Positions 56,206 to 63,496 of a DNA stretch of 64,000 bases are shown piece by piece. Source of the stretch: an archaeon (lineage in GTDB: Archaea > Nanobdellota > Nanobdellia > Pacearchaeales > GW2011-AR1); NCBI GenBank assembly GCA_027343665.1, contig DAHWKL010000001.1:46770-110769 (forward strand), in the 5' to 3' direction. The position numbers and the translations under genes were made by a program. Below the pieces are notes generated by a model. It saw only the letters and a list, made by a program, of their open reading frames with translations, was not told where the DNA came from and ran no database searches. Within the stretch, counting starts at the first letter, position 1; each line of letters opens with the position of its first letter.

Positions 56206-56364
56206 ATAATTGTCCCGCTAACACTAATCTTAATCCGTTGATTGCTACGAAATTGATTTCTTCACTAAAGAGAATTAATCCCAAAAAAACTCACTTATTA
56301 ATTTAATAAATTTGCAAAATCTTGTACTCAATTTTTAGAGTAATTTGCGCCTTAACCTATTTAA

Positions 56365-56397
56365 GCGGAGCATCCAGGCAAAGCCTGATGCGAAGCA
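56365..56397 (+). repeat. Hairpin repeat family 1, copy A
   Basis: GCGGAGCATCCAGGCAAAGCCTGATGCGAAGCA. It has a GC clamp, a 3x3 purine internal loop, and a 9-bp stem with one unpaired base in the 5' arm. Confidence 0.75.
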
Positions 56398-56482
56398 GTT
56401 AGAATTCTTTTAAGTCCTGCCTTCCACACAATCGTCCGCAAAATTTATATATGAACTGTTTTTAATTTTCTTAGGTGAAAAA

Positions 56483-57136
56483 ATGAGAGAAAATTGTGAG
56501 TGCGAAGATGAAGAATGCGGGTGCAGCAACAATGAGTGCAATTGCGAAAATTGCAGCTGTGATGAAGAAGGATTTTTAGCAATAAATCATCCTGCTCCGG
56601 ATTTCACTGCTGAAGCTTATCATGAAGGAAAGATAAAAAAAGTCTCTTTGGAAGATTATAGGGGGAAATGGGTGATAGTATTTTTCTACCCGGCCGATTT
56701 CACTTTCGTATGCCCCACCGAACTGGGAGAGATGGCAGAGAGGTACGAGACTTTCAAAAAATTAGGATGCGAAATCCTTTCTGTATCAACAGACACACCT
56801 TTTGTCCACAAAGCATGGCATGATGCTTCTGACACGATAAAGAAGATAAAATTCCCGATGGTTGCTGACCCGACACATGAGATATCCTACAAATACGAAA
56901 CGATAATACCTGAAGAGGGAGTCGCATTAAGGGGATCATTTTTGATAGACCCAGACGGGATACTCAAAGCTTACGAGGTACATGACAATTCCATCGGAAG
57001 AAGCGCTGACGAACTCATAAGAAAACTCGAAGCTGCTATTTTCGTGAGAGAAAACGGCGGAGAAGTCTGCCCCGCGAACTGGAAGCCGGGACAAAAGACT
57101 CTTCACCCCGGACTTGATTTGGTCGGGAAGATTTAA
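56483..57136 (+). CDS. Typical 2-Cys peroxiredoxin (AhpC/Prx1 type) with metallothionein-like Cys-rich N-terminal extension
   Basis: 217 aa. The Prx core has FFYPADFTFVCPTE (peroxidatic Cys) and EVCPANW (resolving Cys). The N-terminus MRENCECEDEECGCSNNECNCENCSC carries 8 Cys as four CxC pairs. An AGGTGA Shine-Dalgarno-like sequence lies upstream. Confidence 0.9.
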   Translation: MRENCECEDEECGCSNNECNCENCSCDEEGFLAINHPAPDFTAEAYHEGKIKKVSLEDYRGKWVIVFFYPADFTFVCPTELGEMAERYETFKKLGCEILSVSTDTPFVHKAWHDASDTIKKIKFPMVADPTHEISYKYETIIPEEGVALRGSFLIDPDGILKAYEVHDNSIGRSADELIRKLEAAIFVRENGGEVCPANWKPGQKTLHPGLDLVGKI

Positions 57137-57168
57137 GACGAGAGAAGAGGGGAGGATATCTAATTTCT

Positions 57169-58008
57169 CTACAAATCCTCCAAAGGACTCTTTGTGTTGA
57201 TTAAATTCGGGGAAGCGATATGCGTGTAAATCAAGGTCGTTTCAGGGGACTTGTGACCTAAGAGCGCCTGGACATTTGTGACATCATACCCGTTTTCTAT
57301 TAAATGAGTCGCAAAACTATGCCTTAAAGTGTGCGGATGAATCTTCCTTTTTATCCCGCAAGACTTTGCCGATTTATCGATTATTTTTTGGAGAGTCCTT
57401 ATTGAATATTTTCTTTCGCGATTGCTTTTGAATAGATAATCCGCCTCTGAGAGTTTTTCATCCTTGATTACTTTGTTTATTGCAGGAATCAGATTGTTAG
57501 ACAAGGTGATCAACCTATCCTTTCCACCCTTTCCGTTTCTGACAAATCCGAAATTTTTGTCCAGATTCAAGTCTTTGACTTTCATGTTTATCAGTTCAGA
57601 GACTCTCAAACCTGAAGAATACATAAAACAAACCATCAGCTGATGCTTGAAATTTTTAATCGAGTCTATCAATTTTTTGACTTCATCCTTGGATAAAACT
57701 TCAGGAAGCCTTACAGGGGTCTTTGAATATCTTATGTCAAGCCACATCTTTTTGTCCAGGACTTGAGTAAAAAGAAATCTGATGGCCATATGATAAGTGT
57801 TCAGAGAGTTCCCGGACAAATCTTTCTCAGACAGGTGTTCGAGAAAAAGCCGGACATCTTTTTTTGAGATCTTATCAAGAGTCTTGGGGGAATATTCCAG
57901 AAATCGATTGATGCAGTATAAGTAGGTTTTAGTCGTCCGCGGACTCAACCTCCTTCTTCTGCATTCCTTCTCAACAGATCTCTCGATGTTCACAGGAACA
58001 TAAGACAT
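57169..58008 (-). CDS. Tyrosine recombinase, Xer/phage-integrase family (SAM-like N-domain plus catalytic domain)
   Basis: 279 aa with GLRVSEL (Arg I), HPHTLRHSFATHL (H-x-x-R), LLGH and LIYTHI (catalytic Tyr). There is no IntI-specific insertion between them. Confidence 0.9.
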   Translation of the reverse strand: MSYVPVNIERSVEKECRRRRLSPRTTKTYLYCINRFLEYSPKTLDKISKKDVRLFLEHLSEKDLSGNSLNTYHMAIRFLFTQVLDKKMWLDIRYSKTPVRLPEVLSKDEVKKLIDSIKNFKHQLMVCFMYSSGLRVSELINMKVKDLNLDKNFGFVRNGKGGKDRLITLSNNLIPAINKVIKDEKLSEADYLFKSNRERKYSIRTLQKIIDKSAKSCGIKRKIHPHTLRHSFATHLIENGYDVTNVQALLGHKSPETTLIYTHIASPNLINTKSPLEDL

Positions 58009-58048
58009 GAATAATCAAAGGAGGGGATATATAAAAATTTTTCGAATC

Positions 58049-58083
58049 GTTTTCTGAATTCCGGACTTTTAACGCGGGAAAAC
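58049..58083 (+). repeat. Hairpin repeat family 2 (TTTTCCGG type), copy F
   Basis: GTTTTC...TTCCGGACTT...GAAAAC. It shares the 10-mer TTCCGGACTT with 63353-63362. Confidence 0.5.
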
Positions 58084-58144
58084 CTAAAATTCACCGGAGT
58101 TCGTTAAAAGTCTGTTAGTTGTAATTTCGCACCCAAAAAGTAAA

Positions 58145-58381
58145 ATGGTAAATAAAGTTTATATTGAAGACGCAGAAGATTTAATGAGAGAAAGCAAAAC
58201 TTATAGAAAGATACTTGAGCATAGAAGAAAATGCTCAAAATGGGGAAAAGAGTTTTGCTTAGAATGTTTTGGTGGAGGACTAACTTTATTTACAAAGAAT
58301 TTAAGTGAAGAATTATATTTTAAAGAAAAGGAGGGTGCGAAACTTGGCTCTAACGAGCCACCTGCTACGCAGGACAACTAA
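58145..58381 (+). CDS. Small hypothetical protein (CxxxxxxxCxxC)
   Basis: 78-aa ORF. It is AT-rich apart from its last roughly 50 nt. It may be a spurious read-through into spacer sequence. Confidence 0.3.
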   Translation: MVNKVYIEDAEDLMRESKTYRKILEHRRKCSKWGKEFCLECFGGGLTLFTKNLSEELYFKEKEGAKLGSNEPPATQDN

Positions 58382-58397
58382 TAGGAATTAAATGAAA

Positions 58398-58412
58398 TAA
58401 ATTTTGGCGCGC
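58398..58412. repeat. Left arm of the perfect 15-nt inverted repeat bracketing the panE-like gene
   Basis: TAAATTTTGGCGCGC. Its reverse complement occurs at 59342-59356. Confidence 0.9.
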
Positions 58413-58458
58413 TCAAATAACAAAGCTTTTTAATTAGAATGATTTTTGATATTATAAT

Positions 58459-59340
58459 ATGGATATTTTAATTGTTGGTGCGGGATCAATAGGAGTTTAT
58501 CTAGGGACTTTGCTCCATAGCAAAGGACATAATGTTTTTTTGCTTGGAAGAAAGAAATTGAAGAAATTGCATGAAACAATTCTTATTGGGGAACAAATTT
58601 ATGAAATTCCAAAGAGAATTTATGCCTTCCCAAAAAATAAAACTTATGATTTTGTTTTTATCACATCAAAACTCTACGATTTTGAAAACAATTTGAAGAA
58701 AATAAATGATAATCAGATAAAAACAAAACATCTGGTGAGCATTCAGAATGGAATTGTTGAAAATGAATTATATGAAAAATACACTAAAAAGTTTTCTTTC
58801 TCATCAATATCCGTTTTTGAAGGATTTAGAATTGTAGAAAACCAGCTTATTGTAAATCAATCAAAATCAGGATGGAAAACAGACAATTCAAAAACAGGGA
58901 TTGAGACTTCAAAGGTTTTACAAGATGCAGGAATAAATTGTACAACAGAAGAAAACCTAGATTCAATAAAAGCAGAAAAAACAATAATGAATTGTTGTGC
59001 TAATATTTTATCCGCAATTAAGAAAAAAACATTTTTTGAATTATATAAAAACCCAACAACAAAAGATATAATGGACAATCTTTTCAATGAATCATATGAT
59101 ATTCTGAATCAAGAATACAAATTAAAACCTAAGGAAGAGTTAAGAAAACTTTTTTACCAAATAATACAGCCAATGAAACATTATTCCTCAACATATCAGG
59201 ATGCAATTTCTGGCAGAAAAACAGAAGTTCAATTTCTAAATGGATTGATAATAAAACTAGCAAAAAAACATAAACTCCAGGCACCAACAAATCAGAAATT
59301 ATTAGATGAATTCTTTAGTAAATATCCAAAATCAAAATAA
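58459..59340 (+). CDS. Ketopantoate reductase (PanE/ApbA)-family oxidoreductase
   Basis: 293 aa with MDILIVGAGSIGVYLG (Rossmann fold) and SSTYQDAISGRKTEVQFLNG (family C-terminal signature S-x-x-QD...G-x-x-TE...NG). Confidence 0.75.
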   Translation: MDILIVGAGSIGVYLGTLLHSKGHNVFLLGRKKLKKLHETILIGEQIYEIPKRIYAFPKNKTYDFVFITSKLYDFENNLKKINDNQIKTKHLVSIQNGIVENELYEKYTKKFSFSSISVFEGFRIVENQLIVNQSKSGWKTDNSKTGIETSKVLQDAGINCTTEENLDSIKAEKTIMNCCANILSAIKKKTFFELYKNPTTKDIMDNLFNESYDILNQEYKLKPKEELRKLFYQIIQPMKHYSSTYQDAISGRKTEVQFLNGLIIKLAKKHKLQAPTNQKLLDEFFSKYPKSK

Positions 59341-59341
59341 C

Positions 59342-59356
59342 GCGCGCCAAAATTTA
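59342..59356. repeat. Right arm of the perfect 15-nt inverted repeat bracketing the panE-like gene
   Basis: GCGCGCCAAAATTTA, starting 2 nt after the ORF stop codon. Confidence 0.9.
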
Positions 59357-59362
59357 CTCTGC

Positions 59363-59384
59363 GGTTTTTCCTTCGGAAAAATCC
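59363..59384 (+). repeat. Hairpin repeat family 2, copy B
   Basis: GGTTTTTCC-ttc-GGAAAAATCC forms a 9-bp stem. CTTCGCTCAC follows at 59409-59418. Confidence 0.55.
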
Positions 59385-59480
59385 TCGGGGACGTCTTGCA
59401 GACTTTCGCTTCGCTCACCCTCATTTAACAGCGATTATATAAAATTACCCTGTAACTTCATATAACAGATCCCCGCAACC

Positions 59481-59508
59481 TTTTTATATGAACCCTCTTT
59501 CATATGTT
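59481..59508 (+). promoter_or_regulatory. Conserved 28-nt TATA + inverted-repeat block upstream of the ferredoxin-like gene
   Basis: TTTTTATATGAACCCTCTTTCATATGTT. The inverted repeat is ATATGAA-N6-TTCATAT at 59486-59505. The block is 25/28 identical to 60803-60830. Confidence 0.6.
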
Positions 59509-59530
59509 CGGGAGAATCATATAACTGAAC

Positions 59531-59794
59531 ATGCCAAAGATAAAGTTCAATGACAAAGACGCCGAGGTAGCCGAAGGCGAGAATCCTTATGACACATTCG
59601 AGAAACTCGGGATGGAATTCTCATGCTTCAACGGGATATGCGGAACATGCAAGATGAAGGTCAATAAAGGAATGGAGAACATAAACCCCAAGACAGAAGA
59701 AGAGAATGAATTTCCCCTTGATGATGACGAGAGGCTCGGGTGCCAATGCTCAAGATTAAAAGGAGATATCGAAGTTGAATATGAAGGGTGGTGA
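59531..59794 (+). CDS. 2Fe-2S ferredoxin-like protein
   Basis: 87 aa with a CFNGICGTC...C pattern (C-x4-C-x2-C...C) in SCFNGICGTCKMKV...RLGCQC. Confidence 0.7.
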   Translation: MPKIKFNDKDAEVAEGENPYDTFEKLGMEFSCFNGICGTCKMKVNKGMENINPKTEEENEFPLDDDERLGCQCSRLKGDIEVEYEGW

Positions 59795-59953
59795 CGCCCA
59801 GGGATTTGACTGAAAAGCTCCGAAACGTACTCGCGTCATGTTTCTACGCCAGGAAATAATTATTATCGTCAGATTATGTCCACAGATTAATCAATTTTGC
59901 AAAAGTTAATAATCAACTCCGATGGTTTTTATGACATTAACTATTTTTAACCG

Positions 59954-59986
59954 GCGGAGAAATCAGGCAAAGCTGATTTCGGAGCA
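59954..59986 (+). repeat. Hairpin repeat family 1, copy C
   Basis: GCGGAGAAATCAGGCAAAGCTGATTTCGGAGCA. It has the same architecture as copy A, with a compensatory stem change. Confidence 0.75.
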
Positions 59987-60056
59987 TTGAATATAAACCG
60001 GAGGCAAATTTTAAAGGGGAACAAAGTGCCGGGCGGGCGGGACAGTTCTGAATAAA

Positions 60057-60701
60057 TCACACATCCCAAAAATTGGAGAAATTGTACAAATTTTTCAAGC
60101 CTCTATTTTTAACTTCCCCAGTCACCATAAAAGCAGGATTTAACTCTTGCCCATATCTTACCAATTCCCCGACATTTCCACTCCAAGAATTTCGGGTTTC
60201 ATTGAAAAGGAGATTCACTAACAATCTGCGTGAACGCCTTACATCATTGATACCAAGGTGGTCCAGCAAGGAGCCAGATATCTTTTCTTTTAATGAATTA
60301 TTTTTACTTTGGATATAAACTCTTTTCATATTGGCAAAAAGGTCTTTTGCCTCTGATAAATCATCCTCGCTTAAGAAACTCCAGTAACCTTCTTTCAAAA
60401 ATGAAACAATCCTGTCTGAACCATAATCAATCCCATATTCCAAATTGTATAATTTTCCTTTTTTGTTAAACGTAACCCTTGCAAACGCGTGGGATCCATA
60501 ATGACCTTCTGGGGGTCTATTACTGAAATGAATCTGGAAAGAATTATCCCCCTTGAATCTTCCATTATTTGAGCGCAGAGTTAATCCTAATTCTATCTCA
60601 GGTAAAAATATGCCCTGGTTTTCACATTTGACTGCTTCATCCAACGTTTCATACCCCTTACTGCAAATTTCACAGACATATTTTATTTCTTGCTTTGCCA
60701 T
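60057..60701 (-). CDS. Hypothetical protein with N-terminal CxxC...C zinc-ribbon-like segment
   Basis: 214 aa beginning YVCEICSKGYETLDEAVKCENQG. No family call. Confidence 0.45.
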   Translation of the reverse strand: MAKQEIKYVCEICSKGYETLDEAVKCENQGIFLPEIELGLTLRSNNGRFKGDNSFQIHFSNRPPEGHYGSHAFARVTFNKKGKLYNLEYGIDYGSDRIVSFLKEGYWSFLSEDDLSEAKDLFANMKRVYIQSKNNSLKEKISGSLLDHLGINDVRRSRRLLVNLLFNETRNSWSGNVGELVRYGQELNPAFMVTGEVKNRGLKNLYNFSNFWDV

Positions 60702-60802
60702 GCTCTAAATTCTTATATGGGAGTCTATTTAAGAATTTCCGTACTCCAATGGGATACTAATAAAAAGACTCTGGGAGAACTAATTACCCCTTCATCAAAA
60801 CA

Positions 60803-60830
60803 TTTTTATATGAACACCTTTTCATATGTT
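60803..60830 (+). promoter_or_regulatory. Conserved 28-nt TATA + inverted-repeat block upstream of sufB
   Basis: TTTTTATATGAACACCTTTTCATATGTT. The inverted repeat is at 60808-60827. The block ends 10 nt before the sufB ATG at 60841. Confidence 0.6.
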
Positions 60831-60840
60831 TCAGATTAAC

Positions 60841-62226
60841 ATGTCAAAAATACAGGAAGCATACGCTATGAAGAACCCGGAGGACCTTAAGTTCAAGAGT
60901 CCGGAGGGTCTTTCTGAGGAGCTCGTGAGGCAGATATCCAAAGACAAGAAAGAACCTGGGTGGATGCTCCAGAGGAGACTGAAAGCCCTTGAGATATTCA
61001 ACTCAAAACCAATCCCGACATGGGGACCTAGTCTCAAAGGTCTGGATCTTGACAGGATACACTATTACATTCGCCCCAACGCCAAGAATTCGAAATCATG
61101 GAAAGAAGTTCCGAAAGACATTTATGAGACATTCGAGAAACTTGGAATACCTGAAGCTGAAAGAAAAGCTCTTGGAGGAGTCGGAGCCCAATATGAAAGC
61201 GAAACAATTTACCACAACCTCAAAAAAGACCTTGAGAAAAAAGGAGTCATATTCACGGATTGTGACACGGGCCTGCGTGAGCATGAAGAACTTTTCAGGA
61301 AATATTTCATGACTACATGCATATCGCCGAACCTTCACAAATTTGCGGCTCTTCACGCTGCAGTATGGAGTGGAGGGACTTTCATATATGTCCCTAAAGG
61401 CGTGAAAGTGGAAATCCCTTTACAGGCATATTTCAGGATGAACGCGCAAAAAGGCGGTCAGTTCGAGCACACATTAATAATCGCTGACGAAGGCTCGGAA
61501 ATCCATTACATAGAAGGTTGCTCTGCCCCGCAATATCAGGAAAGTTCTCTTCACGCGGGATGCGTCGAGATACATGTTTTGAAAAACGCACGCGTCAGAT
61601 ATTCCTCAATTGAGAACTGGTCGAAAAATACTTACAATCTTAACACCAAAAGAGCAGTAGTTGAAGAAAGTGGAATAATAGAATGGGTGAATGGAAACCT
61701 CGGAAGCCATACGACAATGCTTTATCCGTGCAGCGTACTCAAAGGAAAAAACGCGAAATCAGATTATATCGGAATAGCTTACGCCGGGAACGGGCAATAC
61801 CAGGACACAGGATGCAAAGTGTATCACTTAAAGGAAAACACATCTTCGACTGTGCTCTCAAAAGGCATAAGCGTGGACGGCGGAGTGACTTCATACAGAG
61901 GCCTTGTCCAGATAAATCCAGGAGCAACCAATTCAAAATCTAGCGTGCGCTGCGACGGGCTTATGCTGGACAACAAGAGCAAAGCTATGACTTTGCCATC
62001 AATGGATGTACATGAAAGCCAGGTCGAAGTCTCACACGAAGCGGTCGTCGGGAAGATAGGAGAAGAGGATCTGTTTTACCTGATGAGCAGAGGACTCTCA
62101 GAGATGGAAGCGACAAAACTGATCGTCTCAGGATTCATAGAGCCTGTAGTTAAAGAACTCCCACTTGAATACGCAGTCGAATTAAATAAACTAATCGAAC
62201 TCGAGATAGAAAACTCCGTTTGTTAA
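60841..62226 (+). CDS. sufB: Fe-S cluster assembly protein SufB
   Basis: It has GLSEELVRQISKDKKEPGWMLQRRLKALE and a beta-helix core ending in EEDLFYLMSRGLSEMEATKLIV. I chose the start at MSKIQ (60841). The track ATG at 60826 lies inside the upstream inverted repeat. Confidence 0.9.
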   Translation: MSKIQEAYAMKNPEDLKFKSPEGLSEELVRQISKDKKEPGWMLQRRLKALEIFNSKPIPTWGPSLKGLDLDRIHYYIRPNAKNSKSWKEVPKDIYETFEKLGIPEAERKALGGVGAQYESETIYHNLKKDLEKKGVIFTDCDTGLREHEELFRKYFMTTCISPNLHKFAALHAAVWSGGTFIYVPKGVKVEIPLQAYFRMNAQKGGQFEHTLIIADEGSEIHYIEGCSAPQYQESSLHAGCVEIHVLKNARVRYSSIENWSKNTYNLNTKRAVVEESGIIEWVNGNLGSHTTMLYPCSVLKGKNAKSDYIGIAYAGNGQYQDTGCKVYHLKENTSSTVLSKGISVDGGVTSYRGLVQINPGATNSKSSVRCDGLMLDNKSKAMTLPSMDVHESQVEVSHEAVVGKIGEEDLFYLMSRGLSEMEATKLIVSGFIEPVVKELPLEYAVELNKLIELEIENSVC

Positions 62227-62227
62227 A

Positions 62228-62590
62228 ATGAAAATAGACTCCATCTACAAAGAAGAGATAATGGAAATTTATTCGGAGAAGCCCAACTTTGGGGAACTCA
62301 AAGTGAAGACCCACGAGGCAAAACTCAAGAATCCCGGATGTGAAGATGAATTCAGTATAGAACTCCTTGTCAAAAATGGAAAAATAAAAGACGCGAAGTT
62401 CACTGGGAAAGGCTGCGTCATATCAACTGTCTCGACAGCAATACTTACAGAAAAGATAAAAGGGATGAAACTCTCTGACGCTCAGAAAATGTCAAAAAAA
62501 GACATGGACAATTTTTTAGGGATAGAGGTCATTCCCACCAGAGTTAAATGTGAACTTCTCGGGCTTGAGATATTAAGGAGAATGAAATGA
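62228..62590 (+). CDS. IscU/SufU-like Fe-S scaffold (NifU N-terminal domain)
   Basis: 120 aa with three conserved Cys in NPGCEDE, GKGCVIS and RVKCELL. Confidence 0.8.
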   Translation: MKIDSIYKEEIMEIYSEKPNFGELKVKTHEAKLKNPGCEDEFSIELLVKNGKIKDAKFTGKGCVISTVSTAILTEKIKGMKLSDAQKMSKKDMDNFLGIEVIPTRVKCELLGLEILRRMK

Positions 62591-63330
62591 AATCAAAAAA
62601 AATCCTTGAGATAAAAGACCTGCACGTTGAAGTCGAAGGAAAAGAAATCTTAAAAGGGCTAAATTTAACCCTTGACTTTGGAAAAGTCAACGCTCTCATG
62701 GGTCCCAACGGTTCAGGGAAATCAACTCTTGTCAATGCAATAATGGGCCATCCCAAATATATTGTGACAAAAGGACAGATTCTTTTTGAAGGAGAAGATA
62801 TAACAAAATTATCTCCTGATAAAAGAGCTAAGAAAGGCCTCTTCCTTTCTTTCCAATACCCTCGGGAGATATCGGGGGTCACAGTCTCAAAATTCCTCAA
62901 GACAGTCTCAAAAGAACTAGACCAAGATTTTTCGCTTTTCAATTTCAAGAAAAACCTGAAGGAAAAGTCGCATATACTCGGAATCTCAAAAGAAATGAAT
63001 GAGAGGTATTTGAATGAAGGTTTCTCCGGGGGGGAGAAAAAGAAAAACGAGATACTGCAGATGTTGATGATGAACCCAAAACTGATAATGCTCGATGAAA
63101 CGGATTCGGGACTTGATGTTGATTCTCTCAAGACCGTCGCAAAAGGCGTTAACTCCGTGATGAAGAAAGACAAATGCACCATCATCATAACACATTACAA
63201 GAGAATGCTCGAATACGTGAAGCCAGACATGGTCTTCATAATGGTAAACGGGAAGATCGCTTTATCAGGTGATGGCAATTTAGCTGACGAACTCGAAAAA
63301 AAAGGATATGGGTGGATAGAGGAAGATTAA
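62587..63330 (+). CDS. sufC: Fe-S cluster assembly ATPase SufC
   Basis: 247 aa with GPNGSGKST, LNEGFSGGEKKKNEILQ, IMLDETDSGLD and ITHY. Confidence 0.95.
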   Translation: MKSKKILEIKDLHVEVEGKEILKGLNLTLDFGKVNALMGPNGSGKSTLVNAIMGHPKYIVTKGQILFEGEDITKLSPDKRAKKGLFLSFQYPREISGVTVSKFLKTVSKELDQDFSLFNFKKNLKEKSHILGISKEMNERYLNEGFSGGEKKKNEILQMLMMNPKLIMLDETDSGLDVDSLKTVAKGVNSVMKKDKCTIIITHYKRMLEYVKPDMVFIMVNGKIALSGDGNLADELEKKGYGWIEED

Positions 63331-63348
63331 ACTTTCAGTCGCCCGCTC

Positions 63349-63376
63349 GATTTTCCGGACTTCGTCACGGTAAATC
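63349..63376 (+). repeat. Hairpin repeat family 2, copy E'
   Basis: GATTTTCCG-gacttcgtca-CGGTAAATC forms 8 bp plus one mismatch. CTTCGCTCAC follows directly at 63376-63385. Confidence 0.55.
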
Positions 63377-63463
63377 TTCGCTCACTTTTATAAAAATAAA
63401 TGATATGTGGGAAAAGTTTAGAAGTATTATCAACTAATATTAGCTTTTATCAACCTTTCATAT

Positions 63464-63496
63464 GCGAAGAGATCAGGCAGAGCCGATTTCGTAGCA
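63464..63496 (+). repeat. Hairpin repeat family 1, copy E
   Basis: GCGAAGAGATCAGGCAGAGCCGATTTCGTAGCA. Same architecture. It ends 5 nt from the stop of the minus-strand ATPase gene. Confidence 0.75.

Follow-up and report, generated by a model that had tools for sequence, protein, structure and literature searches.

The genomes of DPANN archaea are tiny and contain hardly any non-coding DNA, and to our knowledge almost nothing is known about the non-coding elements that they carry. The DNA analysed here (the window), a stretch of 64,000 nucleotides (nt) of the archaeal contig DAHWKL010000001.1 that comes from a mine-drainage metagenome, raises this question in a concrete form, as it contains three copies of a 33-nt hairpin, named A, C and E. 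What kind of element are these hairpins? Our tentative answer, drawn by analogy, is that they may form a small DPANN family of 33-nt, strand-asymmetric intergenic repeats whose closest functional analogue would be the repetitive extragenic palindromes (REP) and their composite forms, the BIME and REPIN elements. A preliminary description of this DNA had given the positions, strand and sequences of the copies, all of which proved exact, and their intergenic placement was upheld by the open reading frames (ORFs) and protein domains found on both sides:

56365..56397, + strand: hairpin copy A, stem type CAUC/GAUG, 49-50 bits with the covariance model
59954..59986, + strand: hairpin copy C, stem type AAAUCAGGC, recognised by pattern, fold and covariance model
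63464..63496, + strand: hairpin copy E, stem type AGAUCAGGC with one G-U pair, recognised by pattern, fold and covariance model

Copy A lies between the DUF1858 and AhpC genes, 160 nt past the stop codon of the former and 86 nt ahead of the ATG of the latter. Copy C is placed between the ferredoxin gene, whose stop codon is 160 nt upstream, and a convergent minus-strand ORF of 214 amino acids (aa), whose stop codon is 70 nt away, while copy E lies between SufC and a convergent CopA-like gene on the minus strand, 134 nt past the SufC stop codon and with its end 5 nt from the stop codon of the CopA-like gene.

The fold proposed in the preliminary description was reproduced in each copy, as ((...((((((.(((...)))))))))...)). 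or a one-base variant of it. From its base upward, the hairpin consists of a 2-bp GC clamp, a symmetric 3x3 loop, the G6-C27 pair and a 5-bp outer stem, followed by one extra base on the 5' side, a 3-bp upper stem and a 3-nt purine-rich loop. In the 64 kb of the window the exact pattern GCGRAG-N20-CGNAGCA occurs only at these three sites, and the foot pattern with up to 2 mismatches gave 8 matches compared with 2.8 +/- 1.5 in shuffled sequences, none of 100 shuffles reaching 8. RNA folding yielded z-scores of -4.0 to -4.4 for the copies on the plus strand and weaker values on the minus strand, and with DNA parameters the z-scores were -2.4 to -3.1. The shuffled patterns, the fold z-scores and the covariance-model scores together rule out a chance origin of the hairpins.

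Metagenome contigs were scanned with a pattern made of the 16 positions invariant among four sequences, which matched at least 120 loci. Among the matches listed most were due to chance, with no more than 9 of the 11 pairs formed, and four low-GC contigs carried true members with 10 or 11 of the 11 pairs. A covariance model then added a second copy on the same strand in contig L057 and an inverted partner in contig L147. In this way five members were obtained beyond the three of the window, from a sister strain and from groundwater or soil metagenomes, giving eight distinct sequences in all; the habitats of the family are thus mine drainage, with a DPANN genome, and groundwater or soil, with metagenome contigs. 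All members are 33 nt long and intergenic.

The compensatory stem changes that had been noticed among the three window copies hold, and more of them appeared once the further members were added. Across the eight distinct sequences 96.6% of the stem cells are paired, and five pairs (16 cells) have changed on both sides. The covariation score is 0.529, compared with 0.214 +/- 0.042 in shuffles (0 of 500 reached the observed value), registers slid from the proposed one leave only 21-38% of cells paired, and RNAalifold gives the same structure from the eight-member alignment. G-U pairs occur at 8-25, 13-21 and 15-19, and they are confined to the strand that carries the G.A mismatches. The truly invariant foot across members comprises G1-C32, C2-G31, G3.A30, A5.G28 and G6-C27, with a middle loop pair that varies among G.A, G.G, A.U, A.G and U.G. 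Since G.A mismatches and G-U wobbles always fall on the same strand and the stems change by compensation, the sequence pattern argues for selection of the hairpin as a folded single strand, which may be RNA or single-stranded DNA.

Two further features that had been taken as conserved need to be restricted. The AGGCARAGC apex is common to the three window copies only and does not extend to the family: the sister-strain copy C has AGAUGAAGU at this place and other members have AGACAAAGU, AGCCAUAGA and UGCCAGAGG. The unpaired base is A12 in 7 of the 8 members and so is not strictly invariant, and because A12, G13, A18, G19 and T25 were fixed by the search pattern, part of the agreement of the metagenome members at these positions was built in. 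The bulge of copy A is C11, because A12 pairs with U22, and the first L057 copy (L057a), which was found by the model, has U at position 12, with UU opposite U.

An earlier scan of genome contigs, in a collection that does not include this genome, as even the three window copies went unmatched, had used a pattern containing the apex, a demand too strict for a family in which that part varies. It returned 15 matches, all due to chance, in GC-rich bacteria with at most 8 of the 11 pairs, except for one unrelated GC palindrome. Of the two scans of viral contigs, one gave 0 matches and the other 22 chance matches. Copy number in the metagenome contigs was counted with a 49-nt probe that is insensitive, as it missed the known sister-strain copy; the 14 kb of L071 hold 1 copy. 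An identical 33-mer, GCGAAGAAATTAGACAAAGTCAATTTCGGAGCA, is present at two loci, in L057 and L071, whose flanks are unrelated, and L057 has two hairpins on the same strand, 138 nt apart, with a common 5' flank, TTTTTGGTTTTA.

With respect to neighbouring genes, 6 of the 8 hairpins are co-oriented with the upstream gene and lie 83-210 nt downstream of it, and a convergent gene faces 4 of the 8. The settings outside the window are an interval between FttA/aCPSF1 and an uncharacterised gene, a place 143 nt beyond an archaeal 23S rRNA 3' end, another that follows a cysteine-pair protein of 133 aa without a Pfam match, and one that precedes a membrane ORF.

The preliminary description had pointed out that the upstream flanks of the copies are related. 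This relatedness stands, with no column conserved at a fixed distance from the hairpin. Another feature had been missed: a relaxed regular expression, and then the covariance models R1 and R2, revealed degenerate inverted copies on the minus strand upstream of the hairpins. These partners and the AT-rich spacers that separate them from the full copies are the following:

56243..56265, - strand: partner of copy A, GUGAAGAAAU-ca-AUUUCGUAGCA, 38 nt past the DUF1858 stop codon
56266..56364, no strand assigned: spacer of unit A, AT-rich, 99 nt, with a TTGCAAAA box and a TTAACC block
59816..59849, - strand: partner of copy C, GCGUAGAAAC-13 nt-GUUUCGGAGCU, 22 nt past the ferredoxin stop codon, regular-expression match, 16 bits with the covariance model
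59850..59953, no strand assigned: spacer of unit C, AT-rich, 104 nt, TTGCAAAAGTTAATAATCAAC ... CATTAAC
63345..63381, - strand: probable partner of copy E, GCGAAGAUUUaCCG...CGGaAAAUCGAGC, 15 nt past the SufC stop codon, seen by eye only
63382..63463, no strand assigned: spacer of unit E, AT-rich, 82 nt, GGAAAAGTTTAGAAGTATTATCAAC ... TATCAACC

The partner of copy A scores 18.6 bits with model R1 (E 0.0036 in an 8.2-kb search) and 19.2 bits with R2; it keeps the foot and the outer stem, lacks the upper stem, and is unchanged in the sister strain (L018 3072-3094). The partner of C does not fold better than shuffles, and that of E, which the covariance model did not detect, is the weakest part of the unit descriptions. 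Since an inverted partner sits 82-104 nt upstream of the full hairpin, each window site is an inverted doublet, that is, a unit of 150-170 nt made of a degenerate inverted copy that begins 15-38 nt beyond the upstream gene's stop codon, an AT-rich spacer of 82-104 nt and the full hairpin. When L147 is included with units A, C and E, the partners lie 82-113 nt away on the opposite strand and score 16-26 bits. The outer feet of one unit are able to pair with each other, and the spacers of units A, C and E are homologous to one another and to that of L147, which comes from another habitat (alignments A1 and A4).

Contigs of the sister strain (L018 and L022), about 95% identical, were aligned to the window. 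Copy A and its partner are identical in both strains, and the segment from hairpin A to the AhpC start (56343-56481) has 0 substitutions where about 4.7 would be expected, while both of its flanks differ. Copy C has 7 substitutions, all of them within 59964-59975 and none in the foot, which turn AAAUCAGGCAAAGCUGAUUU into AAAUUAGAUGAAGUCAAUUU and the stem into type AAAUUAGA with pairing kept (C-G to U-A, G-C to A-U and C-G to U-G). Thus, 7 of the 12 upper-stem bases have changed while the flanks differ by about 5%, which gives a stem type equal to that of L071 and of the second L057 copy (L057b). Around this copy, the 54 nt upstream (59900-59953) have 1 change and the 70 nt downstream have 7. 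The sister strain has no partner of C, as it carries 2.9 kb in place of 59793-59899. This replacement is one of three strain indels within 3 kb (+1081, -1320 and +2933 nt), with junctions at 57135/57161, 58114/59435 and 59792/59900, of which only the last, inside unit C, touches a hairpin unit.

Among the three interpretations offered in the preliminary description, the REP/MITE-type element (MITE, miniature inverted-repeat transposable element) fits best, though a RAYT partner was not found, and the REP/BIME/REPIN class fits the observed features better than any alternative that we considered. Like these elements, the hairpin is an imperfect palindrome in the 20-40-nt range, intergenic and mostly downstream of ORFs, with a conserved asymmetry that defines its orientation, sub-families that arise through complementary stem changes and G.T pairs, and inverted doublets. 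To this are added sharp 33-nt boundaries, the identical hairpin at the unrelated loci of L057 and L071, the homology of the spacers, discrete stem types common to mine-drainage and groundwater or soil lineages, and the block-wise switch by which the orthologous copy C site bears a different stem type in two strains of about 95% identity. Bacterial REPs have been described downstream of ORFs, as head-to-head dimers with a spacer, with G.T pairs and with sub-families distinguished by complementary stem changes (PMC3733652). On the model of such repeats, copies would have spread or been homogenised between intergenic sites through copying or gene conversion, with the discrete stem types moving as blocks; read-through from neighbouring genes would then place the hairpin in their 3' or 5' untranslated RNA, where, like REPs, it could form a stable structure that protects transcript ends or binds proteins.

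Several differences and observations weigh against this assignment. The host is a DPANN archaeon, the partner copies are degenerate, and copy number seems low (six copies in 64 kb, 3 of them full and 3 degenerate, with none outside 56.2-63.5 kb), whereas classical REPs reach tens to hundreds of copies per genome. The foot is CGNAG on both sides, forming the G.A / N.N / A.G loop, and not a GTAG or CGTC tag left unpaired at one end; GTAG occurs only where N is U (copy E, L147 and the partner of A), and no unpaired GTAG/CGTC tag is present. Neither in the window nor in the hairpin loci was a RAYT found, and the only Y1 transposase fragment near a doublet, in L147, has homologues with quite different hairpins. 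Because neither the GTAG/CGTC tag nor an associated RAYT was found, we call the elements REP-like, in appearance and probably in behaviour, rather than members of the bacterial families. Moreover, the strain comparison revealed no presence/absence polymorphism with target-site duplication, and the unchanged segment 56343-56481 hints, at the level of sequence, that the element may have a local role in cis instead of being a selfish repeat. RAYT classes are unreported in Archaea, where only classical IS200 transposases are known (PMC6006769). A limited literature search found no description of a REP-type family in Archaea.

That same conserved segment, together with the strand-specific selection, keeps alive the main rival explanation, which we regard as possible but unlikely. 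According to it, the hairpin would belong to a structured RNA with its own promoter, of the BRE/TATA type and located in the spacer, which fires toward the hairpin and produces either an mRNA-leader module (candidates being the leaders of AhpC, of a 148-aa gene in L071 and of the membrane ORF in L099) or antisense RNAs opposite convergent 3' ends. A protein reading the G.A / N.N / A.G loop and the bulge could then connect redox, Fe-S and metal genes of the window, much as an iron-responsive element (IRE) would. The G-U wobbles, an RNA fold clearly better on the plus strand, the AAAAGTT-ATAAT and CATTAAC blocks common to the spacers and the scarcity of changes upstream of hairpin C relative to its downstream side would agree with such an RNA, and so would the window neighbours (DUF1858, AhpC, ferredoxin, SufBC with NifU-like, and CopA, with NifS nearby) and the sister-strain spacer, which abuts the start of a 205-aa gene and would thus be promoter territory. 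However, the neighbours outside the window are not redox or Fe-S genes, being instead FttA/aCPSF1, the 23S rRNA 3' end and small ORFs without a Pfam match, and 2 of the 3 window copies point into the 3' ends of convergent genes. A cis-regulatory RNA would not be expected to have an inverted partner at every window copy, neither the upstream nor the downstream DNA has a column conserved at a set distance, and intergenic DNA of 30-36% GC should contain TATA-like strings by chance. If the folded strand is DNA, it could serve as a site of single-strand recombination or transposition (Y1/HUH ends, a PATE, or an attC-like or Xer module) that mediates gene gain and loss in the region, an alternative we consider improbable. 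IS608 TnpA, RAYT and IntI read a bulged base and conserved strand-marking mismatches in their hairpins, and by analogy the bulge and mismatches seen here could be read likewise; the 8-kb region carries the three strain indels, one junction of which lies within unit C, the L057 same-strand pair with its common 5' flank looks like a miniature element resembling a PATE, and L147 has a Y1_Tnp fragment at 0.8 kb from its doublet. Yet no transposase link was found, no other Y1_Tnp match was obtained in the window or the hairpin loci, and 2 of the 3 indels do not touch a hairpin. Neither inversion nor excision joints appear in the contigs, which hide rare forms. The hairpins share with IS200/IS605 elements and PATEs their short, imperfect form, the extrahelical base and the reading on one DNA strand, and Y1 transposases are present in related DPANN contigs; but in IS200/IS605 a single strand bears both hairpins, on either side of tnpA/tnpB, while the window pairs are inverted with no transposase between or beside them, and the IS200 copies sampled bear unrelated palindromes. 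A direct link to RAYT or IS200 through the L147 fragment was discarded after an analysis of 15 homologues of this transposase and of 9 loci (L172-L180), which are flanked by other palindromes and in none of which the covariance model found this hairpin.

The attC-like or att-like version of this explanation, which had been suggested from the extrahelical base, was not supported. As in integron attC sites there is a folded single strand with extrahelical bases, on the 3' side of genes and with a tyrosine recombinase gene adjacent, but attC sites measure 57-141 nt and have R''/L''/L'/R' boxes, and the hairpin has only 33 nt and no such boxes. For RYYYAAC/GTTRRRY boxes only copy A gave a near match (CCTTAAC ... 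GTTAGAA, both imperfect), with none in C and E. The adjacent recombinase (57169-58008, minus strand, 279 aa) matches the XerA model NF040815 with 233 bits, above its cut-off of 220, and falls short of the integron-integrase models TIGR02249 (196 bits, cut-off 265) and PRK15417 (126 bits, cut-off 435); it is thus a housekeeping, conserved single-copy XerA without the extra domain of IntI. Its orthologues, at 72-82% identity, are widespread in DPANN in different neighbourhoods, and a covariance-model search of these neighbourhoods did not find the hairpins. A cassette, that is, a gene plus its site, was not seen as the unit of gain or loss, given that 2 of the 3 strain indels lie away from hairpins. 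The integron or cassette reading was rejected because of the identity of XerA, the hairpin-free relatives and variable gene modules that are not bounded by hairpins. Finally, the near-palindromic sequence, the inverted pairs around a spacer of about 100 nt and the vicinity of xerA, beside which several relatives have a ParA-like gene, would suit a double-stranded palindrome bound by a dimeric protein (an operator, an ORB-like origin box or a parS-like site), with the inverted pair bracketing an AT-rich segment. We consider this very improbable, as every copy and partner examined shows the same difference between its half-sites, with G and A on one strand and never a perfect palindrome; the stems vary freely while staying paired, and what is a G-U wobble on one strand would become an A.C mismatch on the other. 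Three origin or centromere clusters within 7 kb, among genes, would also be implausible.

The REP-like reading was in addition compared with known RNA motifs and regulatory signals. The kink-turn is defined by a bulge of 3 nt in one strand, after which come two sheared G.A pairs next to each other. The earlier proposal of a k-turn or loop-E-like RNA motif was correct in that a folded single strand with G.A pairs is well supported, and the hairpin resembles the archaeal kink-turn/L7Ae motif in having G.A and A.G pairs beside a short GC helix; it differs from it in its symmetric 3x3 loop, in which G3.A30 and A5.G28 are split by the variable pair 4.29, and the stem register, fixed by covariation, leaves no room for the k-turn layout, so the kink-turn was rejected. 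Membership of a known RNA family found no support either, as the search of the window and the loci against Rfam 15 gave no family overlapping the hairpins at E <= 10, and above the gathering threshold only tRNA was detected in the window and only large-subunit rRNA in the loci. The 33-nt hairpin family is previously uncatalogued and is not in Rfam 15.

Other candidates were also discarded. An archaeal selenocysteine insertion sequence (SECIS) does not agree with the upstream genes, which are complete, with full-length domain matches and no UGA split, nor with the loop type, and no Rfam SECIS matched at E <= 10. Anatomy and Rfam rule out domain 5 of a group II intron; an intrinsic terminator is contradicted by the lack of a T-run after the hairpin on either strand, and a fixed-distance archaeal promoter by the lack of a conserved column upstream of the hairpins. 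An invertible promoter between the inverted copies was dismissed because no strand-switch joints occur in the contigs, in which minor forms would not be visible. The IRE/aconitase-binding hairpin is alike in its size of about 30 nt, the bulged base on its 5' side and its location in untranslated regions, and the Fe-S, ferredoxin and peroxiredoxin neighbours in the window recall it; however, the present hairpin has no CAGUGN loop, has another bulge geometry and is next to unrelated genes elsewhere in the family. An IRE-like Fe-S or redox regulon was set aside for this last reason, since members elsewhere lie beside FttA, 23S rRNA and small ORFs without a Pfam match.

Should the REP-like reading be correct, this would be the first REP/BIME-type repeat family described in Archaea; otherwise, the hairpin would be a new protein-binding RNA module. 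More speculatively, and with little likelihood in our judgement, the hairpin could be the recognition module of a single-strand-specific DPANN system, either an RNA-binding protein that recognises the G.A / N.N / A.G loop together with the bulged base on leaders and antisense RNAs or a nuclease or recombinase that uses the folded DNA. If this were so, the nuclease or recombinase version would represent an archaeal counterpart of REP-RAYT or attC-IntI without a homologous enzyme, moving or converting intergenic modules, and the stem types common to mine-drainage and groundwater lineages would serve as specificity codes. In practical terms, the 33-nt model R2 could be used to scan DPANN genomes, to mark variable regions in the vicinity of xerA and as a starting point for binding or cleavage assays.

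Regarding the contigs outside the window, three near-identical ones of 44-47% GC (L100 877-909, L134 3073-3105 and L153 13525-13557) carry GCGCAGTATTAAGATGAAGATCAGTACGGAGCA (GCGCAG...CGGAGCA), a hairpin with a similar foot, 9 of the 11 pairs and 23.6 bits; it was left as doubtful and may be a distant relative or a product of chance. L099, a contig of 29% GC, has a GC-rich stretch (gtcgccccacccgccagcatttcgttcccccctcctgccctactcgcgcttgcac) at about 1040-1100 on the minus strand, some 300 nt upstream of its hairpin, which gave no Rfam match and could be an unrecognised small RNA. In L147 (1-490 and 1325-2474), a groundwater or soil DPANN contig, the IS200-type Y1 transposase fragment overlaps a HicB-like antitoxin gene, and an archaeal 23S rRNA gene is split by an ORF for a LAGLIDADG homing endonuclease.

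The window itself encodes aIF2, aIF2-gamma, the HAN nuclease and XerA, which mark the host as an archaeon, and the closest relatives of the latter carry the labels Nanoarchaeota or Pacearchaeota, in agreement with a place in DPANN. This organism was not present in the RNA sequencing runs of the same study. The order of genes around the hairpins is EamA (-), DUF1858 (+), unit A, AhpC (+) and XerA (-), then the 78-aa ORF, PanE-like, ferredoxin (+), unit C and the orphan 214-aa ORF (-), and lastly SufB, NifU-like, SufC (+), unit E and CopA-like (-). The GC-rich island that the first and last copies had been said to bracket is weak, with a GC fraction of 0.30-0.45 across 56-64 kb compared with about 0.36 elsewhere. 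The 214-aa ORF (60057-60701, minus strand) has an N-terminal CxxC...C motif without a Pfam or NCBIfam match, and among 5.8 billion clusters no homologue was found beyond its own 90% cluster of 3 members. The AhpC-type peroxiredoxin begins with a Cys/Glu-rich extension of about 30 residues (MRENCECEDEECGCSNNECNCENCSCDEE, encoded at 56483-56580), which may be a metal-binding tail, and its AhpC domain starts at residue 34.

The sister strain differs in gene content in this region: an extra 2-hydroxyacid dehydrogenase gene lies between AhpC and xerA, the segment with the 78-aa ORF and the PanE-like gene is missing, and between ferredoxin and unit C there is a 2.9-kb cluster with a 76-aa ORF, YcaO, a nitroreductase-family protein and a 205-aa ORF, a composition similar to that of a gene cluster for a ribosomally synthesized and post-translationally modified peptide (RiPP). 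Upstream of xerA, 55-110 nt from its start, an inverted repeat of the form (A/G)GACTTTTAACG ... 27-29 nt ... CGTTAAAAGTCTGTTA occupies 58063-58117 and is also present at L018 ~165-220 and L020 9861-9914. Both the sister strain and a relative whose XerA is only 75% identical have kept it but not the surrounding DNA, and the 1320-nt strain-specific segment (~58115-59434), which carries the 78-aa ORF and the PanE-like gene, starts exactly at the end of the repeat (...CTGTTA|). This repeat could be a dif-like site or a control element of xerA, with the module integrated beside it.

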